DNA from: Fidelibacterota bacterium
GTDB taxonomy: Bacteria > Fidelibacterota > UBA8477 > JABMPR01
Assembly (NCBI GenBank): GCA_021734255.1
Contig: JAIPJM010000003.1
Location: 61,517-125,516 of the forward strand
Direction of reading: 5' to 3'
DNA length: 64,000 bases
The translations under genes were made by a program, and so were the position numbers. Positions 2,048 through 14,801 of this stretch are shown here, piece after piece. The notes below the pieces were generated by a model. It was not told the origin of the DNA. It saw nothing but the letters and a program-made list of their open reading frames with translations, and searched no databases. The stretch's first letter is position 1. Every line of letters starts with the position of its first letter.

Positions 2048-2123
2048 TACTCCCCTCTTTCCTCTGACTGTGTGGACTATAGCTTAGCAAAAGGAACTCT
2101 CTTTGGAAACAATTATTTCCTTT

Positions 2124-2273
2124 TGTCATTCTGGGCGTCAACGAAGAATCTTGATCTGGATTTCGGAGTAAACCTTACACGTCTTCGCGAGCCCTTAGGG
2201 CGTGGCGATCTCGAATTATCCCTAATTGGCAAAGACAATATTATTGGGTATTTTTCCTCACTTCAGGATGGTC
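2124..2273. repeat. MITE-like/REP-like repeat copy A (about 150 bp): ttgtcattctgg...tttcggagtaaaccttacacgtcttcgcgagccc-hairpin...cttcaggatggtc
   Basis: Shares 70-80% identity over about 100 bp with copy B at 3406-3646. Terminal inverted-repeat-like ends tgtcattctg / caggatgac. Lies immediately 3' of the glpD-like gene. Confidence 0.5.
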
Positions 2274-3372
2274 TTCGCGACCTTTTCAGCCAATGAAAGG
2301 TAGGTGGTCAGTTTTCCGCCAAAAATATGGATCAATTTGCTCTCACCCTTTTGATGGACATCCAGCTTATACTCCCTGCTCACATCTGACATATTTCCTT
2401 TTTTTCGAACCAGGGGCCGAACACCAATGTAAATATCCCTGACATCCTCACGCTGGAATTGGTGATCCGTTTTCAGATAAACATTCACCTGGTCCAACAG
2501 ATATTGGATATCTGCTTCCGCAGCCTCCACCTCATCCATCTCACAATTTTCCTCGCGCTCTGTTGTCCCCAGGATCGTCTGATCATTTTCAGGTTCCGGA
2601 ATGATAAAGAAGATTCGCTTTTCCCTGGTCTGCATGAACATGAGGTTGGGAACCATAACGCCATCGAAGATCAGGTGGATACCACTCACTTTCCGGATCT
2701 GATACCTGGCTGGGAAATGATATGCTTCGTTCACCTCATCCATCCAGGGACCGGTTGCATTGATGAGCAGGGGAGCCTGAAATTCTCCTGCAGCAGAATG
2801 CACAACAAAACCAGATCGATCCCAATCTATTGATTCGATATCGTCATGAACGATGATCGTCCCCCCAAATTCCTGAAAATCATCTGCAACCCGGCGGGTC
2901 AACTCCCGATCGTGGGTTTTTGCATCCACATAGGAGAGGACTGAGCGCAAGCCATTCTCTGAAAAAGCCGGGAATCGCTCCAAAAAGGCTTCCATGCTTT
3001 CCTTCCGTGATCTTCCAGCTGACCTGGAGCCTGAGAGGATATCATACATCCACAAACCAATACGGATCATCCAACCGGGACGGGGGCTGCTTTTATAGAT
3101 GGGAAGTATGAATCTTTCGTAGTGCACCAGGTCGGGATACTTCTCCACCAGGCGTTGCCGATCATGGAGAGCCTCATAGACCAGGTGGATCTGAGCGGTT
3201 TCCAGATAGCGGAGACCACCATGAATGAGTCGTGAAGATTTGGAGGACGTTCCGCTCCCTACGCCATTTTTGTCCAGCAGTAGTACCTGTTTGCCTTGGC
3301 GGGCAAGATTCTCTGCCACACCACAGCCATTGATACCGGCGCCAAGTACGATGACGTCATAGGATTGCATAG
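2258..3372 (-). CDS. FAD-dependent glycerol-3-phosphate dehydrogenase-like oxidoreductase (GlpA/GlpD family, short form)
   Basis: N-terminal Rossmann motif SYDVIVLGAGINGCGVAENLARQG and GlpD-like motifs (SSKSSRLIHGGLRYLE). The start is moved to MQSYD, because the longer ORF (to 3439) would read through the MITE-like repeat. Confidence 0.75.
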
Positions 3373-3405
3373 TTAAAGATAACCCAAATAAACACTCCAG
3401 AGAAT

Positions 3406-3646
3406 TGTCATTCTGAGTTTTATAACTGGGAAATGTCATCCTGAATCCTTCGACTAAGCTCAGGATAAACGCAGGATATTGAACCTGATTTCGAAGTAAG
3501 CCCTACACGTCTTCGCGATCCCGACAGGCATGTCGGGAGAAGCGATCTCCACTTGATCCCAATTGCCAAGATTATGTATGATTCAGCATCTTAAATTCTG
3601 AGATTGTCCGCCTACGCTTTGTCCTTCGACAGGCTCAGGATGACAG
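3406..3646. repeat. MITE-like repeat copy B (composite, about 240 bp) with internal direct repeat ccttcgacNNNgctcaggat and terminal inverted repeats tgtcatyctga / tcaggatgaca
   Basis: Alignable to copy A (tgatttcgaagtaagccctacacgtcttcgcgatccc + hairpin cccgacaggcatgtcggg + aattgccaagatta). Sits in the 5' region of the glpD-like gene. Confidence 0.5.
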
Positions 3647-3703: not shown

Positions 3704-5107
3704 CTATTTGAACAGAGGCCACCACAGGAGTGCCAGGAGCAGTAGTGATCCAATGGACATGATAGCCATCTTCCAGCCCGCTCGCAGGAAGTCAGGTGCC
3801 CTGACCAACCCGCTGGAATAAATAATGGTACAGGCAGGTGCGGCTACGGCTGTAAAATATCCAAAGGCTGAAGAAATGACGGAAGCCAGACCCAGAAGGA
3901 TGGGATCTCCACCTAAATTCAGTACGATGGGACCGACAACGGCAACGGTTGCTGAACTGCTCAGCAAATTTGAGAACACGCCGCTTAAGCCCACTGAGAC
4001 CACGGCCCGCAGTGCGTCTATATTGGGAATGATCCCACTCAACAGATTCACACTCCCCTCGGCCAGCCAGGCTGCGCCTCCTGTGTTTTTCATCTGAACA
4101 CCAATGGAGATGGTCGCTCCAAAGAGCAGAATTACTCCCCAGTTCACATTCTGCCGAATGTCCTCCCACGAGACCAGATCAAACGCGATGAACAGAAAAA
4201 CCCCCATGAGCGCTATGGTTCCGATCCCATACCTTTCGCTCAGGGTTATCCAACTGGTGAGGATGCCCAGAAAAAGCAGCATGGAAAATATCTCTTTCCT
4301 GGAGATCTTCCCGGCGCGGGCAACATTCACGGAGAGTTTACGAACGGCTGTGTCTAATATTTTTAATTCAGGCGGGAAGGTCTTCAGAATAATGAGGATG
4401 GTGATCGGTATCTCGATCAAAACCATGGGATATACCATCTTCATCCACTCCAGGTAACTCATTGTCCCAGACCCGAATTCTGCCCAATAATTCAGCATGA
4501 TAACATTACGGCCACCACCACTGGGAGTACCAATGGAACCAATGGTGGCGCCATAGGCGATGGAAAACAGCAGAGCCGCAACAAGGTTTGTGTCTGCCTT
4601 GCCCTTTTTATTGGTAAAACGAATGAGTGTGAGCGCTACGGGAAGCATCATGGCTGTGACCATGTGGGGTCCAACAAAACTGGATAAAAGTGCTGAGATG
4701 GCCGTAAATCCTGCGGCAATTCGCCAGGTCCGATTACCGGTGAGACGAATGATCCCCAGCGCGAGGCGCTTATCTAATCCCTGGCTGATAATGGCCACAG
4801 CCAACATGAGAGATCCCATGATAAAGAAGACCGCATCATTCATAAAGTAAGCGCCGACTTCATTGGGTGTGCTCCCACCGATAATTACCTGCCAGAACAG
4901 TAGTTGCAGGGCGATGGCTGGTAGCGGAATGGGTTCTTTCAGGATAAGGATCAGCGTCATCAGGATGATGATCAGGATGTGGTACCCAGCATCGCTCAAG
5001 CCTTCAGGAGCTGGGACGAATAGGTAGAGGATCCCTCCCAAAGCGAATGCGACCAGAAGCCAACGCTTCTGTTGGATCCAAAAAAGCGTATTCGTTGATA
5101 TGTGCAA
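3704..5107 (-). CDS. IT-superfamily anion permease (SLC13/DASS-like; ArsB/NhaD/CitMHS superfamily), paralog 1
   Basis: 467 aa, multi-TM throughout. About 65% identical to paralog 2 at 6038-7438, with shared blocks FMNDAVFFIMGSLMLAVAI, SQGLDKRLALGII, GTPSGGGRNVIM, SSSATVAVVGPIVL. Confidence 0.7.
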   Translation of the reverse strand: MHISTNTLFWIQQKRWLLVAFALGGILYLFVPAPEGLSDAGYHILIIILMTLILILKEPIPLPAIALQLLFWQVIIGGSTPNEVGAYFMNDAVFFIMGSLMLAVAIISQGLDKRLALGIIRLTGNRTWRIAAGFTAISALLSSFVGPHMVTAMMLPVALTLIRFTNKKGKADTNLVAALLFSIAYGATIGSIGTPSGGGRNVIMLNYWAEFGSGTMSYLEWMKMVYPMVLIEIPITILIILKTFPPELKILDTAVRKLSVNVARAGKISRKEIFSMLLFLGILTSWITLSERYGIGTIALMGVFLFIAFDLVSWEDIRQNVNWGVILLFGATISIGVQMKNTGGAAWLAEGSVNLLSGIIPNIDALRAVVSVGLSGVFSNLLSSSATVAVVGPIVLNLGGDPILLGLASVISSAFGYFTAVAAPACTIIYSSGLVRAPDFLRAGWKMAIMSIGSLLLLALLWWPLFK

Positions 5108-5120
5108 AGTAGGGCGCTTC

Positions 5121-6056
5121 TTAGCGGACGATCAGAATCGGGACATCCGTTTGCTTTAAGGTCTGAATGGGCTTACTTCCAAAAAGAAATTGTTTAAGCG
5201 GATTTAAGGTAGAGGCACCCATAATGACAATGTGATTATCACCGGCGAATTCTACGAAGGTTCGGACCGGGTCACCTGTGAGAAAAAATTGCTCCACATC
5301 AATTCCCCTGGAATCAAAGTAGGCTTTGGCCATGTCCGCAGCGCCCTGGTAACCAGCGCCAAACCGGCTGGTCTTGGAAACGGTCAGGGTTCTCACCGGC
5401 CATCCCAATTTTTCGGCGATCAGAGCTCCCCATTCAACAGATTTTGCTGTGGCTGTGGAATCGTCAACCAGCAGAAGGAGTTTATATTTTTTCCGGGGAT
5501 TGAATTTTTGCAAAACAAAAATTGAGCCTGGCAGGTATTGGATAAGGGAGTGAGCCAGATTCCGTTTGTTTTGACTCCCACCAATGATAGCAAGATCATA
5601 TTTTTCCAATTGCATCTCTTTACGCAACTCACCGACCAGTTCTCCTTCGCGCAAAACGAGCTCAATTTTCTTCCCTTCAACATCTGGCATGAAAACCCGG
5701 ATCCTGCCATCCTCTTCATAGACGTGATCTGGGTTGAACTGGATCTTCGCCAAAGCTTCGTTCTCGGGATTCAATTTCTTCAACTCCTTGAGTGCCCATT
5801 GCAACACTTCAAGACCAGGATGAATGATATTCCAGTCTGTCAGATTCTGGCGCGTCAGATTGACTGAGCTTCCATGAAACTCACTGGCTTTCTTGCCGAC
5901 GTAGGCTACACCCATGCTGGCATCAAATACAGAGGCAATGAGTGACCCAAATGTAAGCGTCGGTTTGGAGTACTTCTCACTGCTGACTGCCGTTAGAAAC
6001 TTGAGTGGTTTGGTGTCGATCTTTTCTCGTTTTTTCGTCATAATAGTGGCCACCAT
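5121..6056 (-). CDS. Universal stress protein, tandem UspA domains. Likely true start MTKKREK at 6041 with ATGA overlap onto the upstream permease stop.
   Basis: Two Usp-like halves (ILVDDSTATAKSVEWGA...; DVPILIVR C-terminus). Located between the two permease paralogs. Confidence 0.75.
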   Translation of the reverse strand: MVATIMTKKREKIDTKPLKFLTAVSSEKYSKPTLTFGSLIASVFDASMGVAYVGKKASEFHGSSVNLTRQNLTDWNIIHPGLEVLQWALKELKKLNPENEALAKIQFNPDHVYEEDGRIRVFMPDVEGKKIELVLREGELVGELRKEMQLEKYDLAIIGGSQNKRNLAHSLIQYLPGSIFVLQKFNPRKKYKLLLLVDDSTATAKSVEWGALIAEKLGWPVRTLTVSKTSRFGAGYQGAADMAKAYFDSRGIDVEQFFLTGDPVRTFVEFAGDNHIVIMGASTLNPLKQFLFGSKPIQTLKQTDVPILIVR

Positions 6057-7438
6057 AATAAGGATAATGCAAGTAGGCTAACAATAGATAAAACAGCCAT
6101 TTTCCAGCCCGCTCGTAAAAAATCTTTCGATCGCACAAGACCGCTGGAGTAGATAATAGTACAGGCTGGCGCAGCGACGGCAGTAAAATAGCCAAAGGCG
6201 GAGGCGATGGCGGTGGTGAAGCCAATGAGAATCGGGTCGCCCCCCAGGTCCAGCACGATGGGCCCCACTACAGCAACTGTAGCAGAACTGCTGAGAACAT
6301 TTGACATCACACCAGTAAGCAAGACTGAGACACTCCCCTGCAAGACCGCCGGACTTTCAATAATTTGACTGAGGTTAACGATTATGGTCTTGGCTACCCA
6401 TTGGGCGGCACCCGATTGATTCATCTGAATACCAATGGAAATAGCGGCACCAAAGAGGAGAATGACCCCCCAATTCGTCCGCTGATTCAGTTCACTCCAG
6501 TCAACCAAACCGAAAGCAAGATATAGGAAGACACCGATCAGAGCGATCACACCCAGACCAACATCTTCACTGAGGAAAACCCAGCCCAGGAACACCAGGC
6601 CAAAGAGGAACAGAGCCAGCCATTCCTTCCCTTTGATCTTGCCAGCATGGGCAACATCCACCACTAACTTTCGTACAGCGCTGTCCAGAATGTCGTATTC
6701 AGGTTTGAAGGTCCAGAGCAGAATGATGACTGTAAATGGGATCTGAAAAAGAACCATGGGATACACATATTTTATCCATTCCAGATAGGAGACAGTACCC
6801 ACACCAAATTCTGACCAATAATTCATCATGATCACATTCCGTCCACCACCAGAGGGGGTACCAATAGAGCCTATCGTGGCACCATAGGCGATGGAAAAGA
6901 GCAGGGCCGCTGTCAAGCCGGCAACTTTTCTGGGGTCTTTATGGGCATAGCGGACCAGGGTAAGACCAACGGGCATCATCATGGCGGTTACTGTATGTTC
7001 ACCAATAAATGAAGACAGAATCGCAGATATGGCGGTAAACCCAACGACGATTCGCCAGGTCTTATGGCCGGTGATCTTGATGATCCCCAGGGCCAGACGC
7101 TTATCCAGTCCCTGACTGACGATGGCTACCGCCAGCATGAGGGATCCCATGATGAAGAAAACGGCATCATTCATAAATGAAGACGCCACATTATTGGCGG
7201 TATCCACTCCCAAAACCACTTGCATGAAGATCATGAGCATGGCGATGGCTGGAAGGGGTAATGGCTCTGTAATGATCAGGATCAGAGCCATGGATATGAT
7301 GATCAGGGTATCGTAGGCCGCCATGGTCAAATCGGCAGGAGGTGTGATGAAAGTATGCATGACAAGGCCATACAAAAGGGCGATGAGCAGCCACTTTTTC
7401 TGACGTATCCAGAACAGGATATCGATATACATACTCAA
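6038..7438 (-). CDS. IT-superfamily anion permease (SLC13/DASS-like), paralog 2
   Basis: 466 aa. Close paralog of 3704-5107. Immediately downstream (minus strand) of the molybdoenzyme gene. Confidence 0.7.
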   Translation of the reverse strand: MSMYIDILFWIRQKKWLLIALLYGLVMHTFITPPADLTMAAYDTLIIISMALILIITEPLPLPAIAMLMIFMQVVLGVDTANNVASSFMNDAVFFIMGSLMLAVAIVSQGLDKRLALGIIKITGHKTWRIVVGFTAISAILSSFIGEHTVTAMMMPVGLTLVRYAHKDPRKVAGLTAALLFSIAYGATIGSIGTPSGGGRNVIMMNYWSEFGVGTVSYLEWIKYVYPMVLFQIPFTVIILLWTFKPEYDILDSAVRKLVVDVAHAGKIKGKEWLALFLFGLVFLGWVFLSEDVGLGVIALIGVFLYLAFGLVDWSELNQRTNWGVILLFGAAISIGIQMNQSGAAQWVAKTIIVNLSQIIESPAVLQGSVSVLLTGVMSNVLSSSATVAVVGPIVLDLGGDPILIGFTTAIASAFGYFTAVAAPACTIIYSSGLVRSKDFLRAGWKMAVLSIVSLLALSLLWWPLL

Positions 7439-7469: not shown

Positions 7470-10331
7470 CTATTCGGTGGAATTGTTCTTCAAATAGAAC
7501 AACTCCTTGCTTGGGGCTAAGGGGCGGCCCATCCAGAGCGGTCTTCTTAAGCCATCCGGGTGTGTCTCACGTTCTTTTGCCCAGTCATTCCACTTCTTGA
7601 AGTGAGCAAATGACTTTTCGGTATCTACAAAGACGTCACCATATTTTTCATCTGCTTTGGGCACACTGATGGTCACTTTTTGCAGCCAGCAATGGGCACC
7701 TGATACTGGATCCGGTTGGACGGCATGAGTGATGTTCTGATGAACCCCTCCATCTCGCCACCAGACACGCTGAGTGTCAGGATCGTCGGTCTTCCAGGGT
7801 TCGACGCCAGTGAGTGTCTCCATGCGCCACTTGCCTGTGCCTTCTTGACTGATCTTCACTGTATTGGTCATAAATTTATTGCCCTGGTCTTGCTGACGAC
7901 GCCAACGACCAATATGATGGGAACAGGCAACCACGCCAGGTTTAATTGCCTCTGTTACCCAAACTTTGTCCACGAACCAACCGATCTCTGTCTCAATTTT
8001 GAGCAATTCACCCGTTTTTACTCCCAGTTTTTTCGCATCAAGGGTATTGATCCAGATGGGGTTCCTGTGGGCGATCTCTGTCAGCCATTTGGCATTGGCA
8101 GAGCGACTGTGAATGTGGGTCGGAAGTCTGAAATTGGGTAACAGCACACATTCATGTTTGTCCTCATCCATATGATCCTTATGAACATGGGATTTGATAT
8201 AACCCGGTATGGCCTGATCCGGATAACCAAAATCCACCATGGTCTGGGAAAAGAACTCCTGTTTCCTGGAGGGTGTCGGAAATCCTGCATATTTCTTCCC
8301 TTTGTCAACAACACCAACCGCTTTACCGTCCTTTATCAGTGTTCCGGTTGCGGTCTCTGTGGCTCCTTCTGCGTCCATCTCAGATAGGGGCGTCTTGTTC
8401 TTCTCGTAGAGGCTGGGAACCACATTGTACGCGCCATACTTCCGCATATACTCAAGAGCGGTGAGACCCTCCTTTTCCGCTGTCTCCGTTAGGCCCTCTG
8501 TATGTTCGAAGATGTACTGGTAATATTCATCAATGTTGATCTTCTCGCCCTCGCGATAGGGGCTCATAAAGTGCTTCCTGATACCCAGATCATTGTCCTT
8601 ATCGATACGCCAGGATAGTTCGATCCAGAATTCATCCTCTTCCCAGACCTGGCCAGGGTTCACTTCGTAGGTGTACTCTACTGGCCTGCCTTCCCTTCTG
8701 GCTTGTTCTCTCAGAACGGGCTGACGATAGGCGATCCAGACCCCGGAATGGGTCTCATATGAATTGAGGTCATGGCGTTCGGGACCGTGTCCCATGGGAA
8801 GTACATAGTCTGCGAAAAATGCTGTCTCATTCCAGGTAGGCGTCAGTGCAATGTGGCAGCCAACTTTCTCTGGGTCAGACAGCATCTCGATCCAGGAAAA
8901 TCCATCGGGATAGGTCCAGACCGGGTTAAAGACTCGCGTAAAGTAAACATCCATGGTCCCACGACCATCCTTGATCAGGTGAGGCAGGATCTGACTCATT
9001 TCGAAGTGATTCAGAGTGTATTCCTGTGGAAAGTGGAGTTCATTCCAGACAGGGGGACCGGGAGGTACGTCAAAAAATTCAGGGTGGAATTTATTCCAGG
9101 CGCTGGGTGAGGTGCCACCGGGGGTTCCAACCGATCCTGTGAGGACATTCAGAAAATGCAGGGTTCTTGATACCTGCCAGCCGCCCAGGTTTCCGATGGA
9201 AGCGCCGCGCCATACATGACTTGACAACTGCGAGCCGGCGCCAGCAATAACATGAGCGACCTCAACGATCTGCTCTGCTTCAATACCGGCTTCGGATGCT
9301 GCATACTCAGGGGTGAACTCGGAGTAGACATCGATCAGAGCTGACACGAAATTGTCAAAAGTAAGGTCAAGATCGGGATGCTCAGCCTTGAGATATTCAT
9401 CCCAATTGACCCAGGTTTCCATATACTCACGATCATACAAGCCTTCTTGAAGAATGATACGGGCGATGGCCAGAAACACAGCTGCCTCAGATCCCGGGTA
9501 TGTTGGCATCCAGTAGTCGGCATGACTGGCTGTATTGGAGAGGCGGGGATCCAGCACGATAAGCTTGGCGCCCTTGAGCTTGCCTTCCATGATACGCTGA
9601 GCATGGGGATTGAAATAGTGACCGGTTTCAAGATGCGAACTGGCCAGGATGATAACCTTGGCGTTGGTGTGATCCGGAGATGGTCGATCGAATTTATGCC
9701 ACATGGCATATCCGGCACGTGCACCTGCTGAACAAATATTGGTGTGGGAATTATGTCCATCAACTCCCCAGGCCTTGAGAACACGTTCCATATAGCCTTC
9801 ATGTCCAGGACGACCGACATGGTAAACAACCTTATCCCGGCGCTCAGCTTTCAAAGATTTCTGGATCTTGGCTGCGATCTCATCCAGAGCCTGCTCCCAG
9901 GAAATGGTCTCCCACTTCCCTTCTCCACGCTCACCCGCCCGTTTCAGAGGATACATGATACGTTCAGTATCATTCACCTGGTTAATGGTTGCAGGACCTT
10001 TGGCACAGTTCCTTCCGCGGGAACCTGGGTGGTGAGGATTTCCCTCAAATTTACGGATCTTGCCGTCTTCTTTGTCGATATATGCCAACAAACCACAGGC
10101 TGATTCGCAATTGAAACAGGTGGTCGGAACGATACTATAGCGTCGCTCTTTTTTTACGGGCCAGGATTTGGGATCCAATTCTGCAAAATCTTCCCACTGA
10201 TCCGGGGGGGGATATTTATACAGGGGTCGCGGTCCTTCAAGAGCATAGACCTCTGAAGTGTCTTCATGTTGGGATATCCTGGGGATCACCCCGATCCCTT
10301 CGGCAAATTTTTCTATCCATGAACGTTTCAT
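7470..10331 (-). CDS. Molybdopterin (bis-MGD) oxidoreductase catalytic subunit, DMSO-reductase/CISM family. No Tat signal, so predicted cytoplasm-facing (SoeA-like / PsrA-PhsA-TtrA-like).
   Basis: 953 aa. N-terminal [4Fe-4S] motif CFNCESACG...C about 75 aa from the start. Candidate Mo-ligand region HTNICSAGARAGY. Main frame has an in-frame TGA 9 codons upstream of the ATG, so no hidden RR leader. Partner FeS/NrfD gene upstream. Confidence 0.85.
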   Translation of the reverse strand: MKRSWIEKFAEGIGVIPRISQHEDTSEVYALEGPRPLYKYPPPDQWEDFAELDPKSWPVKKERRYSIVPTTCFNCESACGLLAYIDKEDGKIRKFEGNPHHPGSRGRNCAKGPATINQVNDTERIMYPLKRAGERGEGKWETISWEQALDEIAAKIQKSLKAERRDKVVYHVGRPGHEGYMERVLKAWGVDGHNSHTNICSAGARAGYAMWHKFDRPSPDHTNAKVIILASSHLETGHYFNPHAQRIMEGKLKGAKLIVLDPRLSNTASHADYWMPTYPGSEAAVFLAIARIILQEGLYDREYMETWVNWDEYLKAEHPDLDLTFDNFVSALIDVYSEFTPEYAASEAGIEAEQIVEVAHVIAGAGSQLSSHVWRGASIGNLGGWQVSRTLHFLNVLTGSVGTPGGTSPSAWNKFHPEFFDVPPGPPVWNELHFPQEYTLNHFEMSQILPHLIKDGRGTMDVYFTRVFNPVWTYPDGFSWIEMLSDPEKVGCHIALTPTWNETAFFADYVLPMGHGPERHDLNSYETHSGVWIAYRQPVLREQARREGRPVEYTYEVNPGQVWEEDEFWIELSWRIDKDNDLGIRKHFMSPYREGEKINIDEYYQYIFEHTEGLTETAEKEGLTALEYMRKYGAYNVVPSLYEKNKTPLSEMDAEGATETATGTLIKDGKAVGVVDKGKKYAGFPTPSRKQEFFSQTMVDFGYPDQAIPGYIKSHVHKDHMDEDKHECVLLPNFRLPTHIHSRSANAKWLTEIAHRNPIWINTLDAKKLGVKTGELLKIETEIGWFVDKVWVTEAIKPGVVACSHHIGRWRRQQDQGNKFMTNTVKISQEGTGKWRMETLTGVEPWKTDDPDTQRVWWRDGGVHQNITHAVQPDPVSGAHCWLQKVTISVPKADEKYGDVFVDTEKSFAHFKKWNDWAKERETHPDGLRRPLWMGRPLAPSKELFYLKNNSTE

Positions 10332-10384
10332 AGTCTGATCCCCTCGATCTTCTTTTCAGATATATAATGTTGAATAAGGTTCAT
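10328..10384 (-). CDS. Candidate 18-codon upstream ORF (MNLIQHYISEKKIEGIRL), translationally coupled to the molybdoenzyme gene
   Basis: Strong SD TAGGAGGA 6 nt upstream of its ATG. The SD overlaps the stop of the FeS/NrfD gene. Its TGA overlaps the ATG of the 953-aa gene (ATGA). Confidence 0.25.
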   Translation of the reverse strand: MNLIQHYISEKKIEGIRL

Positions 10385-10394
10385 CTGTATCCTC

Positions 10395-12005
10395 CTAGCT
10401 CAACGGAATCAACTGGGGTACCCGGATCCTCACAAACTCGGTGAGATAAATACCGACAGCAGCCAGGCCAGCAGCGATGAAGACCATGAGATCCGTATCC
10501 AGAGTATAAAGCATAGCCAGCGGAACAATATTTCCCATGAGTATTCCCAGATAGAAATAGCGGCTATAATAGCCCCCGGTCATGAGTTTATGGGCACGTT
10601 TGGTATCCGATGTGGCATGCGGGCTCAGGAATTCAAGTACGAGAAGAGCCAGATTCAGAGAAACGGCAACCTTGAGTACCGTGAGGACCAGTCCACCTCC
10701 ATCACTGGCCAGGAAAATCCAACCTGCCGCACCAGCGATCAGAGCATGGATCAGCATGTGAACAGGAGCCAGATGATTGGCCCACAGATCTCTTCCTTTA
10801 GCCTGAGCCAGCAGGAAGGCCGTATAAATAGCCGTCATGACCGCAATTGGGGCCGTTAGATTGATCAGCAACTTGCGAAAGCCCAGGTCGAAAAGGTTAT
10901 CAAGCAGGAGCAGGGTTACAACACCACCAAAGGCTGTGATCAAGTATCCACCGCGAACCAGCCAGCTGGACCAGTTGGGTCTCAGTAGTACATAGGGGAA
11001 GCGATCCGGTCGATCCAGATCTTTCACCAACAAACCGCCAGTGAACAGCATGAATACCAGGGTCCCAATAGCAGCAGAAAACTCAAGGCTTGAATTTGAG
11101 ACACCACCGAACCATGATAACAGGGCCATGATCAGCATGAGCCCCGTCGCCACAGATTTGGTCCAGATGTAAGCCGGGACTTCCCAGCCCCAAAGCACAC
11201 CTTTGGCAGGTGAGTCGTAGACACGGGTTGCTTTGCTGGATGCCTGTTCTTTTAATTCTGCCAGCACATTATCGATAGCTCTTTGATCCGGTTGGGTGCC
11301 ATTTTTCGCATGGGATTCCATGGCCATCTGTACCAGGAGATCGGCTTGGGCCTCTGTGCTTGCAGGGTCACTGGCATGTTTGGCAAAATGACCAACACCA
11401 CTGGACTGCTCACTCCAAATATAATTATCGCGACGATCGGTCTGGGTCGGTGTCAGCATATCTGAATCACCTTCCACATACCAGAGATTGGGGGTGGTCC
11501 CCTTTTCTGGTTTTCTGGTGACCACGTGCTCCATAGCAACAAAAGATGATATTTTTGAATGCGGATCATCCAGATCCCCTGAAACGATGGCCTCCGTCGG
11601 ACAGATCACAACACATGCTGGTTCATATCCGCCATCGATCCTGTGGGCACAGTAATTACACTTGGCCGCCGTATTGTCATTGGGGTCGATATAGAGTGCA
11701 TCGTAGGGACAAGCCTGCATACAGGACTTGCAGCCGATACAACGCGCATTATCGAAATCTACGATTCCGTCCATACGTGTATACAGGGCAGACGTGGGAC
11801 AGATCTCCGTGCAGGGAGCATCTTCACAATGATTGCAACGGTGGACTGAGAAGGAACGACTGGTGTCCGGAAAGACACCTTTTTCGATGTATTTCACATG
11901 GGTGCGATTGACACCGATGGCCACATCGTGTTCAGATTTACAGGCAACCGTACAGGCATGACAGCCAATACATTTACGGTTGTCTATGACAAAGCCATAA
12001 TTCAT
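10395..12005 (-). CDS. Fused electron-transfer/membrane-anchor subunit: N-terminal 4x[4Fe-4S] ferredoxin domain (PsrB/SoeB-like) plus C-terminal NrfD/PsrC/SoeC-like polytopic membrane domain
   Basis: Four Cys clusters (CIGCHACTVACKSEH, CNHCEDAPCTEICP, CIGCKSCMQACP, CNYCAHRIDGG..CVVICP) in the first 150 aa. A hydrophilic linker follows, then about 8 TM helices. No signal peptide. Confidence 0.8.
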   Translation of the reverse strand: MNYGFVIDNRKCIGCHACTVACKSEHDVAIGVNRTHVKYIEKGVFPDTSRSFSVHRCNHCEDAPCTEICPTSALYTRMDGIVDFDNARCIGCKSCMQACPYDALYIDPNDNTAAKCNYCAHRIDGGYEPACVVICPTEAIVSGDLDDPHSKISSFVAMEHVVTRKPEKGTTPNLWYVEGDSDMLTPTQTDRRDNYIWSEQSSGVGHFAKHASDPASTEAQADLLVQMAMESHAKNGTQPDQRAIDNVLAELKEQASSKATRVYDSPAKGVLWGWEVPAYIWTKSVATGLMLIMALLSWFGGVSNSSLEFSAAIGTLVFMLFTGGLLVKDLDRPDRFPYVLLRPNWSSWLVRGGYLITAFGGVVTLLLLDNLFDLGFRKLLINLTAPIAVMTAIYTAFLLAQAKGRDLWANHLAPVHMLIHALIAGAAGWIFLASDGGGLVLTVLKVAVSLNLALLVLEFLSPHATSDTKRAHKLMTGGYYSRYFYLGILMGNIVPLAMLYTLDTDLMVFIAAGLAAVGIYLTEFVRIRVPQLIPLS

Positions 12006-12059: not shown

Positions 12060-13232
12060 TCAGGAAGCCTGTTGAGCAGCATATGCAGACGCTGCACATT
12101 CGTTCTTCCCAAGGTCCATGGTGCTCTGCTCATCATCCTCTGGATTCAGCCAACCGGCATTCACCTTTCTGATCTCAGCATAGACATCAGGCTGCTTACG
12201 TATGTTTTCCAGGATGAATTTTTGGAAATCCTTATCATTATCGATCCCATAAATGGACGCATTACCCTCAATGATCTTCCCCAGTGATTTTTCAAAAACC
12301 AGGTCTTCATTTGCTTCGCTCCACTGGATATAATGACCGGGAAGCACCTGAAGGTTGGGATCCATCTTTTTGATCTTCTGGTTTACTGTTTCATAAAGCA
12401 TGGTGGCCCATTCGACTGCTTTACCGCCTAGATCTGGTCGCCCCAGCGATATGATGAAAATCGTATCTCCAGATATCACATATTTCCCGTCAATGATGTA
12501 GCAGGTGCTGCCAGGTGTATGGCCCGGCGTATGAACGATCCTGATATCAGGGCCTTTGGGAGAAGCCTTGTAGGTCTCGCCGTCCTGAATAGAAACATAT
12601 TCGAAACTGGCACCGAGAAAATCACCGGCATGTGCATGAACCACTGCCCCTGTTTTTTCTGCCAGGAAGCGACTGCCACTGATATAATCAGCCTGAAGGT
12701 GTGTTTCGAAAGTTTGGGTTAGCTTGCAATCATGCGCTTCCGCAAATTGAGAGTAAAACTCCATATTCCTCGAAGGATCAAAGAGAGTCAGCTCACCTTC
12801 AGAGATCAAACCATAATTCAGAGAGGCTTTTCCAGGCCGAACGAACTGCCACAGTTCGTAGGTATCCGCAGTATCGTTAATTCTTTTGTCTGTCAACATA
12901 TTGCCCCAGGAAACGATTCCCTGGGTTAGATACCCTACATCTTCAAATCCATGGGCGATCAGGATCTCGCCTACATATTTCGCTGAGCCTTCCTTCGCGC
13001 AGACGACCCTCACCTTTTTATCACGCGGGACCTTGGCTACCGATGCTTCCTCTTCTTCCATGAAGTCAAAATAAGGGACATTGATCATATCCACTTCAAC
13101 GGGACTTTCCACTTTGAAGCGGTTGAAGTCCTCTTCATTTCTTACATCCAGAATGAGGAGTTCTTCCGCTTGGGTGAGCCAGTCAAAAAGTTGCTTTGCT
13201 GAGTAGGGAGTAAGCATGTAATTACCTCGCAA
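12060..13232 (-). CDS. Rhodanese-domain / MBL-fold fusion protein, persulfide dioxygenase (ETHE1/Blh)-like
   Basis: N-terminal rhodanese (LILDVRNEEDF...VVCAKEGSAKY). C-terminal MBL fold aligning to ETHE1 (THLQADYISGS vs THCHADHITGS; HTPGHTPGS; SGDTIF). The ETHE1 Fe ligands (His, His, Asp) are conserved. Confidence 0.75.
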   Translation of the reverse strand: MRGNYMLTPYSAKQLFDWLTQAEELLILDVRNEEDFNRFKVESPVEVDMINVPYFDFMEEEEASVAKVPRDKKVRVVCAKEGSAKYVGEILIAHGFEDVGYLTQGIVSWGNMLTDKRINDTADTYELWQFVRPGKASLNYGLISEGELTLFDPSRNMEFYSQFAEAHDCKLTQTFETHLQADYISGSRFLAEKTGAVVHAHAGDFLGASFEYVSIQDGETYKASPKGPDIRIVHTPGHTPGSTCYIIDGKYVISGDTIFIISLGRPDLGGKAVEWATMLYETVNQKIKKMDPNLQVLPGHYIQWSEANEDLVFEKSLGKIIEGNASIYGIDNDKDFQKFILENIRKQPDVYAEIRKVNAGWLNPEDDEQSTMDLGKNECAASAYAAQQAS

Positions 13233-13478
13233 TCATTTCATACGCTGGACATAGAATATCTTATCGAGTCCAACTTCGTCTATCTGTAAAACCTTTTGTC
13301 CGGAGGCTCTGCACCAGGCCTTGATATCTGATTCTGCTCAGGGATGAGCAGCTGTAATTTTCAGTATCTCACCTATCTGCATCATTCTTAATTGTTGGTT
13401 CGAACGAATCACCGGCATTCCCATGCCGCAGTCCCCCAGATCTATGGATACATCCCATTTGACGTCCATATGCTTCAT
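13233..13478 (-). pseudogene. TusA-like sulfur-carrier paralog with in-frame TGA (13338-13340) and altered active-site motif (CPxP replaced by CGMGMP)
   Basis: Translation MKHMDVKWDVSIDLGDCGMGMPVIRSNQQLRMMQIGEILKITAAHP*AESDIKAWCRASGQKVLQIDEVGLDKIFYVQRMK aligns along its whole length with the neighbouring TusA (…DPGSKNDISAWTSRTGHELLG…FVYFIKKK). The stop sits where Gly/Ala is expected. The extended frame ends exactly at the start of the next gene. Confidence 0.5.
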
Positions 13479-13482
13479 TGTG

Positions 13483-13998
13483 CTAAATGAAAAGTGATAT
13501 ATCAGCGTCTGCCGCAAACTCCAGGAAGGTTGCTGCACCGCCAAGTTCAACGCCATCGATGAACTGATCCTGTGTAAATCCGAAGACATCCATGGTCATC
13601 TGACAGCCAATCAGTCTGACACCCAGATCGATGCACATTTCACGCAGCTCTTCCACCGTCGCGACACCTTTTTTCGCAAAGGTCTTCTTCATGAAGGATG
13701 TTGCCATGGCCTCATAGCCTGGAACATTGTTGCCCAGGATATTGGGGATGGGCCACTCAAAATTCTGAAATCCCTTTGGCCCAAATGGCATCTTCATGGG
13801 CATGGCAGGATTGGTCTGTGGCGCCACCTTGGCATCAATCTTTTTGTTCAGCAGGGGCAGCCCATAGAAGGTAAAGAATACAGCAACTTCCATATCCATG
13901 GCGGCTGCTGTCGAGGCTAGTAAAAATGGCGGATAAGCCCAGTCCAGAGTTCCCTGGGAGGCGATCATTGCCAAGCGCTTGGGTCTGTTTTCACTCAT
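13483..13998 (-). CDS. DsrE/DsrF-like (DsrE2-type) sulfur-relay family protein
   Basis: 171 aa. Conserved LIGCQMTMDVFG Cys motif typical of the DsrE/DsrF/DsrH-like family. Adjacent to TusA. Confidence 0.7.
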   Translation of the reverse strand: MSENRPKRLAMIASQGTLDWAYPPFLLASTAAAMDMEVAVFFTFYGLPLLNKKIDAKVAPQTNPAMPMKMPFGPKGFQNFEWPIPNILGNNVPGYEAMATSFMKKTFAKKGVATVEELREMCIDLGVRLIGCQMTMDVFGFTQDQFIDGVELGGAATFLEFAADADISLFI

Positions 13999-14009
13999 GG
14001 ATCACCCGC

Positions 14010-14246
14010 TCACTTCTTCTTGATGAAGTAAACGAACCCTTCATCATTTTCATCAGTACCAAGTAGTTCATGGCCTGTACGGGACGTCCATGCAGAAATA
14101 TCATTTTTTGAACCTGGATCAGTCGCTACCATTTTTAGAATTTGACCACTCTCCATAGCATCAATTGCCTTCTTGGTCTTGATCACGGGAAGAGGGCAAT
14201 TCAGTCCTTTGCAATCCAGTTCCTGATCCACATTAAATTCTGTCAT
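14010..14246 (-). CDS. tusA: TusA-like sulfurtransferase
   Basis: 78 aa with canonical LDCKGLNCPLPVIKTKKAI...TDPGS (CPxP motif). Confidence 0.85.
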   Translation of the reverse strand: MTEFNVDQELDCKGLNCPLPVIKTKKAIDAMESGQILKMVATDPGSKNDISAWTSRTGHELLGTDENDEGFVYFIKKK

Positions 14247-14596
14247 TTAGCTACTCCTTCTTTCTCCGGGAAAAGCTCCCCCAATTTGAATTCTCCAGCT
14301 TCCAATCCGATTTTGCATGAATTGACGCAATTTAAGATTTTCACGATCATATCACTGGCTAAAAAATAAAAAAATCGGGTGCCCTCACGCCTGGAGGCCA
14401 GAATGTTGCGTCTTTGCATGTAACGCAGATGCTGGGAAGTGATGGGCTGGGGGAGATCCAATTCACGTTGGATCTGTCCGACTGACTTTTCTTCTTCCTG
14501 CAAAAACTCAATGATCCGTAATCGTTCGGGATGCCCCAATGCTTTCAAGGTCTTGGAGGCTGATGCGAAAAATTCAGCTTTCTCGGTATCGGTCAT
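14243..14596 (-). CDS. ArsR/SmtB-family transcriptional regulator, SqrR/BigR-like candidate persulfide/redox sensor
   Basis: HTH region LKALGHPERLRIIEFLQEEEKSVGQIQRELDLPQPITSQHLRYM. C-terminal CVNSC pair. Start placed at MTDTEK (14594-14596), because the upstream direct repeats are likely the operator. The ORF track's longer start is 14632. Confidence 0.8.
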   Translation of the reverse strand: MTDTEKAEFFASASKTLKALGHPERLRIIEFLQEEEKSVGQIQRELDLPQPITSQHLRYMQRRNILASRREGTRFFYFLASDMIVKILNCVNSCKIGLEAGEFKLGELFPEKEGVAK

Positions 14597-14801
14597 GTTT
14601 TGTATCACCATTATTAAGACAATATTTGTCATAATATATAGTTTTCACTATATTTGTCAAGTTGAATATTTACACCTGTAGGGCAGCGGTCATGGCAATT
14701 GCTTTTAGCACCAAAAAATGTAGTTTGTCAGGTGTTTTACACCTTCTTTTATAGTAACCCATCCCCCATTAATTCATCAATAATGATATAATTTTTCAGG
14801 A
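14597..14801. promoter_or_regulatory. Divergent promoter region (regulator leftward, acnA rightward) with direct repeat TATTTGTCA x2 (14623-14631, 14651-14659) and near-palindrome GACAATATTTGTC
   Basis: Repeats seen directly, in an AT-rich interval between divergent genes. Candidate ArsR-family operator. Confidence 0.4.

Follow-up and report, generated by a model that had tools for sequence, protein, structure and literature searches.

We analysed a window of 64,000 nt of Fidelibacterota (Marinimicrobia) DNA (GCA_021734255.1, contig JAIPJM010000003.1, positions 61,517-125,516, forward strand). This marine genome encodes a two-gene molybdenum enzyme, predicted to face the cytoplasm, in which the iron-sulfur (FeS) and membrane subunits are fused. 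The BC reading frame (10395-12005, minus strand, 536 aa) lies upstream of the A reading frame (7470-10331, minus strand, 953 aa), with 63 nt between the two and a Shine-Dalgarno-like purine run ahead of each. The pairing of a catalytic subunit lacking a Tat signal with an FeS-NrfD fusion protein, on which the original prediction was built, was confirmed. The gene order is ArsR, TusA, DsrE2, rhodanese-metallo-beta-lactamase (MBL), BC, A, DASS, Usp, DASS, and it is kept in the related loci L088-L092, where the second DASS gene is present in L091 and L092 and absent from L088-L090. The features are:

14243-14632 (-): ArsR/SmtB-family regulator heading the cluster, with weak resemblance to BigR/TsoR (Pfam HTH_5)
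14010-14246 (-): TusA sulfur carrier, 78 aa, with a CPLP motif (Pfam TusA, E = 7.5e-26)
13483-13998 (-): DsrE2-type sulfur carrier (Pfam DrsE_2, E = 1.9e-47)
12060-13232 (-): rhodanese plus MBL-fold protein, putatively persulfide-dioxygenase/CstB-like in activity (Pfam Rhodanese and Lactamase_B)
11466-12005 (-): FeS domain of BC, aa 1-180, with four [4Fe-4S] motifs and no signal peptide (16 Cys, PsrB match)
11205-11465 (-): linker of BC, aa 181-267 (about 85 aa), in which some residues are conserved and two helices are predicted
10395-11204 (-): NrfD-type, eight-helix, quinone-interacting membrane domain of BC, aa 268-536 (Pfam NrfD, E = 1.1e-18)
10356-10358 (-): in-frame TGA preceding the ATG of A by 9 codons, read from the sequence
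10278-10325 (-): conserved amphipathic helix of A, aa 3-18, RSWIEKFAEGIGVIPR
7470-10331 (-): Tat-less Mo-bisPGD catalytic subunit A, 953 aa (Pfam, cofactor ligands, AF2 pLDDT 80.7)
6038-7438 (-): DASS/SLC13-type anion transporter (Na_sulph_symp), candidate sulfate/sulfite carrier (Pfam and TIGR00785)
5121-6056 (-): Usp-domain protein (Pfam Usp), syntenic in L088-L092
3704-5107 (-): second DASS transporter, a paralogue of the first

Among the neighbours, the ArsR-type regulator scored 74.7 against the NCBIfam model HTH_metalloreg (cutoff 55) and 53.7 against BigR, below the cutoff of 155, and it holds the same position in L088, L089, and L091. The DsrE2-type carrier scored 209.3 against SulfCarrDsrE2 (cutoff 210) and was 76% identical to the copy adjoining the Chlorobium sp. 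N1 enzyme. Between it and the rhodanese-MBL gene there is an uncalled TusA-like reading frame (13236-13478, minus strand) with a conserved in-frame TGA (13338-13340), a candidate selenoprotein. The rhodanese-MBL protein had 3TP9, 3R2U, and ETHE1 4CHL as nearest solved structures; its similarity to verified persulfide dioxygenases was weak, and its metal motif deviates, reading THLQADY rather than HxHxDH. The first DASS gene lies directly 3' of A in L004 and L088-L092 as well.

The catalytic subunit

The A subunit carries the Pfam domains Molybdop_Fe4S4, Molybdopterin, and Molydop_binding, with the FS0 cysteines at C72/C75/C79/C109 and with Cys200 aligned with the Mo-ligand cysteine of PsrA and ArrA, the two proteins whose structures were also nearest to the AF2 model. 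The window protein and 34 aligned homologues all retain the FS0 cysteines, together with the Molydop_binding domain and the SHTNxCS motif of the Mo ligand. Together with BC, the subunit shows all three features of CISM membership, namely Mo-bisPGD with FS0 and a protein Mo ligand, a four-cluster ferredoxin, and an eight-helix NrfD domain. The best solved-structure matches of A were in PsrABC of Thermus thermophilus (PDB 2VPW-2VPZ) and ArrAB of Shewanella (6CZ7), both at E of about 1e-37, with Foldseek TM scores of 0.73-0.75 and 20-21% identity in the structural alignment. All three enzymes have Cys as the Mo ligand and the same cluster ligands, but PsrABC and ArrAB differ from the window enzyme in being periplasmic, Tat-exported, and built of separate subunits, with A about 190 residues shorter. 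NCBIfam scores of A fell below every curated cutoff, at 201.3 versus 694 for PhsA, 186.6 versus 777.7 for DmsA/YnfE, 133.7 versus 1600 for ArrA, and 111 versus 1750 for TtrA. The window enzyme thus departs from PsrABC/PhsABC both in having no Tat-exported catalytic subunit and in scoring below the curated cutoff.

Sequence inspection and hydropathy revealed no Tat or Sec signal on A. Its sole RR (residues 63-64) stands 8 residues ahead of FS0 with no hydrophobic stretch behind it, and no 19-residue window in the subunit attains a KD of 1.6. In the list of open reading frames, the ATG at 10331 is the earliest start past the in-frame TGA, and therefore a hidden leader has no room; an upstream start concealed ahead of this ATG was ruled out on the same ground. 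The claims that A has no RR leader and that the TGA excludes a concealed extension were thus both borne out, and about 70 homologues from a wide range of phyla likewise have no signal and no room for an extension.

The N-terminus of A instead carries a motif, [KR]-x-S-[FW]-IE-K-[IF]-AE-x-[LI]-G-[LI]-IP, that is kept in about 70 loci across phyla, and the AF2 model places a helix at residues 5-12. The motif aligned with the RRxFLK region of two Tat-bearing relatives, P0128 and P0151, and the helix may be a remnant Tat or chaperone-binding peptide. We put this idea forward tentatively because a linked NarJ/TorD chaperone gene was present only in L086 and L087, and was absent from the window and the remaining loci.

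The iron-sulfur-NrfD fusion and its orientation

The BC protein has its first cluster motif (MNYGFVIDNRKCIGCHAC) right at the start, and inspection of its sequence found no signal peptide. The 16 cysteines of the FeS domain fall at positions 12-135 in four cluster motifs, and the Pfam domains are Fer4_11 (52-144) and NrfD (268-525). The FeS domain matched PsrB (2vpw_B) at E = 2.7e-46; the NCBIfam models for TtrB, ArrB, NrfC, and DsrO each scored below their own cutoffs on BC (for TtrB, 173 versus 416). AlphaFold gave eight confident helices spanning residues 275-532 (pLDDT about 80-95), which superpose on PsrC (2vpw_C, TM 0.75) and ActC by Foldseek, whereas the FeS domain had a pLDDT below 50, and the model is therefore uninformative on the B-C interface. 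Across the linker region, Y195, W197, G203-H206, L223/L224, and R261-W274 were invariant among 35 homologues, and helices were predicted with low confidence at 220-235 and 241-256.

A frameshift or assembly artefact was ruled out as the origin of the fusion, because all 120 listed BC homologues are about 535 aa long with the same two domains, and B and C occupy one reading frame directly upstream of A in 69/69 related loci in which both were detected. That the fusion would enforce a 1:1 stoichiometry, as predicted, is reasonable.

Across 35 homologues, the mean number of K/R residues was 3.7, 2.1, and 2.7 in NrfD loops 2-3, 4-5, and 6-7 and about 0 in the other loops, and this concentration therefore points to an N-in topology with the FeS domain in the cytoplasm. 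Since export signals are absent from both proteins, the catalytic and FeS modules are predicted to remain cytoplasmic, in agreement with the original prediction; this inward orientation is supported at the level of sequence. Compared with PsrC, the NrfD domain would thus be inverted, and its quinone site would lie towards the cytoplasmic side. Both termini of PsrC lie on the side that bears PsrB (PMC8076601), so an N-terminal fusion would retain the B-C geometry and flip only the membrane orientation.

The alternative that the enzyme is periplasmic after all, with a weak KR-type Tat signal exporting A and BC inserted N-out, draws on the alignment of the A N-terminus (M-KR-SWIEKF...) with the RRxFLK motif of the Tat-bearing relatives, and KR variants do occur among Tat motifs. 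We consider it highly improbable: the N-terminus has no hydrophobic h-region, FAEGIGVIPRISQHED being charged, and KK, HK, or K-x mostly stands at the KR position in homologues. Since the FeS domain is signal-less and lies ahead of TM1, 270 residues and four clusters would have to traverse the membrane, and the N-in topology from the K/R bias opposes a periplasmic FeS domain.

Distribution and relatives

The original prediction held this topology to be known for SoeABC and little else. That part did not stand, since a psrBC fusion, a psrBCA gene order, and a Tat-less, predicted-cytoplasmic PsrA were described in Marine Group A by Wright et al. in 2014, and the same type was published for MGII archaea, green sulfur bacteria, Haladaptatus, and Caldilinea (PMC3906813). 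The green sulfur bacterial version appears in PMC9324843, PMC6338057, and PMC5473276 as PSRLC3, a two-gene enzyme and inferred sulfite oxidiser, for which these papers and PMC3906813 cite Frigaard & Bryant 2008. Nor is the arrangement rare: a profile scan seeded with a 3-sequence alignment placed relatives in no fewer than 594 species genomes, and in the fused clade a single 90%-identity cluster can hold about 2,500 sequences. Because the arrangement was described in 2014 for the same phylum and relatives occur so widely, the two-gene fused Tat-less architecture is already known and is not a discovery. Among 80 related loci, four with a full upstream flank (L003, L027, L043, and L078) yielded no BC gene beside A at the sensitivity of the search.

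The window A subunit was 60% identical to that of Chlorobium sp. N1, whose locus has a fused 521-aa BC with DsrE2 and TusA as neighbours, and 65-70% identical to Poseidoniales/Thalassarchaeaceae proteins. By this close sequence relationship, the BC-A two-gene order, and the lack of a Tat or Sec signal on A, the window enzyme belongs with PSRLC3 and the Marine Group A psrBCA, which likewise comprise two genes, a fused FeS-NrfD gene followed by one for a Tat-less A that is predicted to be cytoplasmic; Marine Group A is, moreover, of the same phylum. The Marinimicrobia locus L093 has pentose-phosphate and Mo-cofactor neighbours, as described for fosmid FPPP_13C3, and contains a TauE-family gene. 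The window population differs from that fosmid in GC content (about 48% versus 32.8%, compared by description), and the TusA/DsrE2/rhodanese-MBL/DASS operon around the window enzyme is not in the 2014 Marine Group A description.

Carriers of the enzyme include Flavobacteriaceae, Saprospiraceae, Rhodococcus jostii, Thermomicrobium roseum, and haloarchaea, which are generally known as aerobic heterotrophs. Several carriers of the fused clade are cultured, among them Thermomicrobium roseum DSM 5159, Flavilitoribacter nigricans DSM 23189, Lutibacter aestuarii, Rhodococcus jostii RHA1, and Natrinema, so that its function is directly testable; the literature searched yielded no member that had been characterised biochemically or genetically or solved structurally.

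Outside the clade, the closest relatives with intact cofactor-ligand cysteines among the 150 best cluster representatives were the Tat-bearing P0128, P0151, and P0157; in the only Tat-less ones, P0123 and P0125, the aligned Mo-ligand cysteine is lost, and in P0125 FS0 is lost too. Tat-bearing BCA relatives also occur on a Sulfurovum mangrovi plasmid (L082) and in a ttr-like locus of Azoarcus sp. KH32C (L085). They share with the window the B-C-A gene order and a YPPxxxW motif ahead of FS0, and the Sulfurovum NrfD subunit also shares a C-terminal PQM/LxPLS; identity between the window and Sulfurovum was 51% for B and 37% for A. In contrast to the window enzyme, twin-arginine signals are present in P0128, P0151, P0157, and the Azoarcus A, a TorD-family chaperone gene accompanies the Tat-bearing BCA relatives, and B and C are separate genes in Sulfurovum and Azoarcus. 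The Sulfurovum A gene is split over two frames and has an uncertain start.

Proposed sulfite oxidation and its alternatives

The gene context around the enzyme combines a persulfide relay (ArsR, TusA, DsrE2), a rhodanese-MBL protein, and sulfate-type transporters, and from this we infer a Soe-like role. Across the 80 related loci, a SulP sulfate permease occurred in 29, a CstB-like MBL-rhodanese in 22, a rhodanese in 16, YeeE/YedE sulfur-transport proteins in 10-11, and an SQR-like flavoprotein in 7. The analysis of context points to a Soe-like sulfite:quinone oxidoreductase over a polysulfide reductase, and on balance we favour the view that this inward-facing fused Mo-bisPGD enzyme oxidises cytoplasmic sulfite to sulfate as SoeABC does. 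Under this proposal, A and BC, the latter combining a four-cluster ferredoxin with the NrfD quinone-site domain, would keep both of their cytoplasm-side modules inside the cell; sulfite would be oxidised to sulfate at Mo, from which FS0 and then the four clusters would conduct the electrons to quinone in the membrane, on the model of SoeABC. Sulfane sulfur carried on TusA/DsrE2 could be oxidised by the persulfide-dioxygenase-like rhodanese-MBL protein to supply the sulfite, the adjoining DASS transporters could let sulfate out, and the ArsR-type repressor may control the whole cluster. The inward orientation and the neighbours suggest that this would be the final step of sulfide or organosulfur oxidation, and since the carriers include taxa generally known as aerobic heterotrophs, oxidation fits better than anaerobic sulfur respiration.

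SoeABC, known from Allochromatium vinosum, Ruegeria pomeroyi, and Aquifex aeolicus, resembles the window enzyme in combining Mo-bisPGD, 4x[4Fe-4S], and NrfD modules, in lacking a Tat signal, and in its large A subunit, SoeA of A. vinosum being about 109 kDa. The predicted inward catalytic and FeS modules, the inverted NrfD domain, and the association with sulfur-relay genes are likewise shared. SoeAB was proposed to face the cytoplasm with SoeC inverted (PMC8076601), and in Acidithiobacillus canonical soeABC is likewise clustered with rhd-tusA-dsrE (PMC6335251). SoeABC differs, however, in comprising three separate subunits in the order soeA-soeB-soeC, whereas the window has BC-A with B and C in one 536-aa protein, and a review of NrfD proteins restricted SoeC to Proteobacteria, Clostridia, and Aquificae and left fusions unmentioned (PMC8076601). 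None of the characterised SoeA proteins (Alvin_2491/D3RNN8, aq_1234, SPO3559) was recognisable among the best 150 cluster representatives, and no SoeA model was among the NCBIfam matches of the window enzyme. Cluster look-ups, plasmid tblastn, and a search from the GC-rich relative P0121 for SoeA returned only fused-type relatives or unrelated 730-880-aa Tat-bearing enzymes. Because the nearest ligand-keeping outsiders are Tat-bearing and the Tat-less P0123 and P0125 have lost the Mo-ligand cysteine, function is not transferable by orthology. A wider scenario, which we regard as possible but rather doubtful, is that the fused Tat-less clade is separate from three-gene SoeABC and derived from Tat-exported BCA enzymes by loss of the signal, that the N-terminal helix is a signal remnant kept for NarG-like cofactor-insertion chaperoning, and that the clade provides the main cytoplasmic sulfite dehydrogenase of such abundant marine heterotrophs as Marinimicrobia, MGII archaea, and Bacteroidota.

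The strongest competing explanation, though in our view an unlikely one, holds that the enzyme faces the cytoplasm and acts on sulfane sulfur (polysulfide, persulfide, thiosulfate, or tetrathionate), either as a reductase or reversibly. Quinol would then reduce the sulfur that TusA, DsrE2, or rhodanese brings in, or sulfide would be oxidised to polysulfide. This is the PsrABC role that Wright et al. and Hawley et al. gave the Marinimicrobia enzyme (PMC3906813, PMC5688066), and it agrees with the nearest solved and modelled families (PsrA/PhsA, ArrA, and TtrB), with a BCA order that matches ttrBCA-like loci, and with the adjoining sulfur-carrier genes. Marinimicrobia transcripts of the enzyme were, in addition, reported from anoxic to sulfidic water (PMC5688066), where an O2-dependent dioxygenase would be unable to supply sulfite. 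This counts against sulfite oxidation, as do the deviant metal motif of the MBL protein, its weak similarity to persulfide dioxygenases, and the possibility that the sulfate-family transporters act as importers and not exporters. Against a reductase, the family scores, those for PhsA and TtrB included, all lie far under their cutoffs, and a review found Psr, Phs, and Sre indistinguishable by sequence (PMC8359478). The characterised Psr, Phs, and Ttr enzymes, moreover, face the periplasm, the side of their substrates, and the commonest conserved neighbours of the fused enzyme are sulfate-family transporters and dioxygenase-type MBL proteins. The enzyme is also widespread among taxa generally known as aerobes.

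The choice between the two functions has consequences beyond this locus, for the enzyme, under the name polysulfide reductase, underlies the part that Marinimicrobia are proposed to play in 'cryptic' sulfur cycling within oxygen-minimum zones. Under the wider scenario above, the 'polysulfide reductase' behind the oxygen-minimum-zone models of Marinimicrobia sulfur cycling would be mis-assigned. A role in sulfite oxidation would also alter the reading of metagenomic and metatranscriptomic 'psr' signals that come from Marinimicrobia, from MGII archaea, and from Bacteroidota of the sea.

A non-catalytic, quinone-interacting module with a molybdopterin-like subunit devoid of cofactor, like ActB/QrcB, might be suspected from the ligand losses in P0123 and P0125, but is scarcely credible here, given that the cofactor motifs persist in the window protein and in the 34 homologues aligned with it, and that MoaD/MoaE or other Mo-cofactor genes adjoin the enzyme in several loci.

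Architecture and orientation of the enzyme

In the ORF listing of the window, every gene of interest around the gene for the fused FeS-NrfD protein (BC) and that for the molybdopterin protein (A) was found on the minus strand. The genes are given below in transcription order, with assignments from Pfam/NCBIfam except for the uncalled ORF.

Genes around BC and A in the window
14243-14632 (-), ArsR-family regulator
14010-14246 (-), TusA
13483-13998 (-), DsrE2
13236-13478 (-), uncalled TusA-like ORF between dsrE2 and the rhodanese-MBL gene, with an in-frame TGA at 13338-13340
12060-13232 (-), rhodanese and metallo-beta-lactamase-fold (MBL) protein
10395-12005 (-), FeS-NrfD protein (BC), 536 aa, directly before A
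7470-10331 (-), molybdopterin protein (A), 953 aa
6038-7438 (-), DASS transporter
5121-6056 (-), Usp protein
3704-5107 (-), second DASS transporter
2258-3439 (-), GlpD-like flavoprotein

The A subunit contained the three Pfam domains typical of Mo-bisPGD enzymes, the cysteines C72/C75/C79/C109 of its [4Fe-4S] site FS0, and a Cys200 aligned to the cysteine that ligates Mo in PsrA and ArrA. The original prediction of a Tat-less subunit with no hidden extension was borne out: no twin arginine with a hydrophobic stretch was found in residues 1-62, no 19-residue window anywhere in the protein reached a KD of 1.6, and the ATG at 10331 is the earliest possible start downstream of the in-frame TGA at 10356-10358, which rules out a hidden upstream leader. 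A Tat motif was found in none of about 70 A subunits of the fused clade. The predicted single-gene fusion also held, with a BC protein that begins with its first cluster motif right at the N-terminus and carries 16 cysteines arranged as four [4Fe-4S] motifs, then a linker, about 85 residues long and conserved at some positions, and an NrfD domain of eight helices. AlphaFold predicted these helices with high confidence and they superposed on PsrC and ActC; the FeS domain of the same model was unreliable.

Neither protein had a signal sequence. Across 35 homologues, the mean numbers of Lys/Arg residues were 3.7, 2.1, and 2.7 in NrfD loops 2-3, 4-5, and 6-7, and 0.03, 0.11, 0.2, and 0 in loops 1-2, 3-4, 5-6, and 7-8, a distribution that by the positive-inside rule would make the even loops and the FeS domain at the N-terminus cytoplasmic, in agreement with the inward orientation first proposed. 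The Psr crystal structure has the two PsrC termini on the PsrAB-bearing side, and an inverted orientation has been proposed for SoeC (PMC8076601), which suggests at the sequence level that the fusion would retain the B-C geometry and merely flip it across the membrane.

Distribution and prior description

The topology had been regarded as known for SoeABC and little else, and this view did not survive the database search. The BC protein had more than 8000 database relatives, and when each species was represented by one genome, at least 594 genomes encoded an A-subunit relative, with bacterial and archaeal phyla represented. The 120 BC relatives listed were all 58-88% identical to the window protein, all contained both Fer4 and NrfD domains, and were 523-558 aa long (119 proteins) apart from one 459-aa fragment; the named entries among them were Marinimicrobia. 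The best 80 of the at least 594 A-subunit relatives spanned 60-79% identity and came from Marinimicrobia, Poseidoniales/Thalassarchaeaceae (MGII archaea), Saprospiraceae, Lewinellaceae, Flavobacteriaceae, Cyclobacteriaceae, Planctomycetota, Pyrinomonadaceae, KSB1, Calditrichaeota, Spirochaetia, and Chlorobium sp. N1, including the cultured strains Flavilitoribacter nigricans, Lutibacter aestuarii, and Gaetbulibacter sp. S0825. B and C formed one ORF immediately upstream of A in all 69 loci in which both domains were detected. A GC-rich branch (Alphaproteobacteria, Myxococcota, Rhodothermaceae, Chloroflexi, Gemmatimonadetes) was likewise fused, and plasmid or megaplasmid copies occurred in Thermomicrobium roseum, Rhodococcus jostii RHA1, and haloarchaea; the T. 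roseum proteins are annotated simply as "4Fe-4S dicluster domain-containing protein" (510 aa) and "molybdopterin-dependent oxidoreductase". In four loci (L003, L027, L043, L078) the sequence upstream of A, at least 2 kb in each, contained no adjacent FeS-NrfD gene detectable by tblastn (E < 1e-5), and these loci may represent variant organisations; in L078, ORFs of 494 and 313 aa lay upstream, together with an A-like paralogue.

The fused architecture is known, very widespread, and already published for this phylum. Wright et al. 2014 (PMC3906813) described a psrBCA gene order on Marine Group A fosmids, a psrBC fusion on fosmid FPPP_13C3, a PsrA that has no Tat signal and is predicted to be cytoplasmic, and the same features in MGII archaea, Haladaptatus, Caldilinea, and green sulfur bacteria (for the last, Frigaard & Bryant 2008, as cited there). 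In a Marinimicrobia locus (L093) whose BC was 62% identical to the window protein, the neighbours (ribulose-phosphate epimerase, transketolase, RpiB, and Mo-cofactor genes) were those listed for FPPP_13C3, and therefore the window enzyme belongs to the published family. The green sulfur bacterial enzyme PSRLC3 is encoded by two genes (PMC5473276) and is viewed as an alternative sulfite-oxidising system (PMC6338057; PMC9324843).

Probable function

No curated family model reached its cutoff for A or BC (best scores: PhsA, 201 vs 694, for A; TtrB, 173 vs 416, for B), and the structures nearest to A, ArrA and PsrA, were about 20% identical, so the substrate cannot be named by homology alone. In the window the enzyme is preceded by a TusA/DsrE2 sulfur relay and the rhodanese-MBL protein, a relative of CstB-type persulfide dioxygenases, and followed by transporters of the DASS family of Na+/sulfate symporters. 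Among 80 related loci, SulP sulfate permeases (29), CstB-like MBL-rhodanese proteins (22), rhodaneses (16), YeeE/YedE sulfur-transport proteins (10-11), MoaD/MoaE (8-10), and SQR-like flavoproteins (7) lay near the enzyme, and L093 contained a TauE-family gene. This combination of genes is that of sulfide/persulfide oxidation in the cytoplasm, which yields sulfite. Many of the carriers come from groups usually regarded as aerobic heterotrophs. Canonical soeABC also clusters with rhd-tusA-dsrE (PMC6335251). Based on these neighbours, carriers, and the soeABC parallel, we favour, with moderate confidence, a predicted Soe-like sulfite:quinone oxidoreductase. A reductive or reversible role is possible as well, given that the enzyme is reported to be expressed in anoxic water and that the MBL protein has a deviant metal motif. 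In the literature on Marinimicrobia the enzyme goes by the name of polysulfide reductase (PMC5688066), one review recommends no reading more specific than "unspecified dissimilatory sulfur metabolism" (PMC8359478), and our literature search found no paper tying Marinimicrobia to sulfite dehydrogenase in this sense. The remaining value of the fused enzyme lies in its likely mis-annotation as polysulfide reductase.

In T. roseum a "metal-sensitive transcriptional regulator" of the CsoR family (L081, 4135-4413), rather than an ArsR-type protein, precedes BC-A. The persulfide sensor CstR belongs to this family, whose presence here is consistent with persulfide-responsive control across different lineages.

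Possible origin of the fused clade and associated features

As described in the literature, SoeABC is defined by a three-gene organisation, from which the window enzyme differs. When the 150 best cluster representatives were compared, the closest non-members of the clade to retain the cofactor-ligand cysteines (P0128, P0151, P0157) carried Tat signals and shared with the window A subunit a YPPxxxW motif before FS0. A Sulfurovum relative, with separate B and C genes and a TorD chaperone gene, shares the C-terminal PQMLPLS motif of the window protein. Taken together, the Tat-bearing relatives and the unfused locus point to a possible origin of the fused clade from exported BCA-type enzymes, separate from that of canonical Soe. 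Two relatives without a Tat signal (P0123, P0125; about 40% identity) lacked the aligned Mo-ligand cysteine, and P0125 additionally lacked the FS0 cysteines and had gained long low-complexity inserts; both may be non-catalytic derivatives of the family.

The N-termini of the A subunits at the 80 loci revealed an amphipathic helix conserved across bacterial and archaeal phyla, with the consensus [KR]-x-S-[FWL]-IE-[KR]-[IF]-AE-x-[LI]-G-[LI]-IP and the window copy KRSWIEKFAEGIGVIP (aa 3-18 of 953; 10278-10325, minus strand). The predicted model was also helical here, and in alignments the segment fell where the Tat-bearing relatives have their twin-arginine (RRxFLK) region. In NarG a remnant signal peptide is retained for chaperone binding, and the helix may likewise be a remnant kept as a chaperone-binding site, an idea we hold as a hypothesis because a NarJ-like gene was linked in only 2 loci. 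We found no description of this helix in the literature searched.

The closest contigs (L088-L092, 80-91% identity) had the same operon as the window. The DASS-Usp-DASS arrangement with two paralogous transporters (3704-7438, minus strand) was also present in L091 and L092, in contrast to one DASS followed by Usp in L088-L090, a difference that reflects recent duplication or loss among closely related populations. At 1-2083 (minus strand) a frame with more than 694 codons and no stop continues past the window start, which keeps it off the ORF listing; by synteny with L088 it is the gene of the penicillin-amidase family that lies downstream of the GlpD-like one.

The uncalled TusA-like ORF reads MKHMDVKWDVSIDLGDCGMGMPVIRSNQQLRMMQIGEILKITAAHP-[TGA]-AESDIKAWCRASGQKVLQIDEVGLDKIFYVQRMK, and gene callers left a gap or called only a 48-aa front part. 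Beginning 13-16 nt past the TGA is an invariant segment of about 30 nt, AAGGCCTGGTGCAGAGCCTCCGGACAAAA, which can fold into a small hairpin whose loop is GUG; its fold energy was not better than that of shuffled controls (z = 0.61). The hairpin looks like a bacterial SECIS, making this ORF (13236-13478, minus strand) a candidate selenocysteine-containing TusA-like protein. Counterparts were found in L088 (6905-7147), L089 (2070-2303), and L091/L092 (about 5520-5770); the in-frame TGA is kept in four Marinimicrobia populations, whose sequences differ in amino acids both before and after it and whose reading frame continues uninterrupted to a conserved stop.
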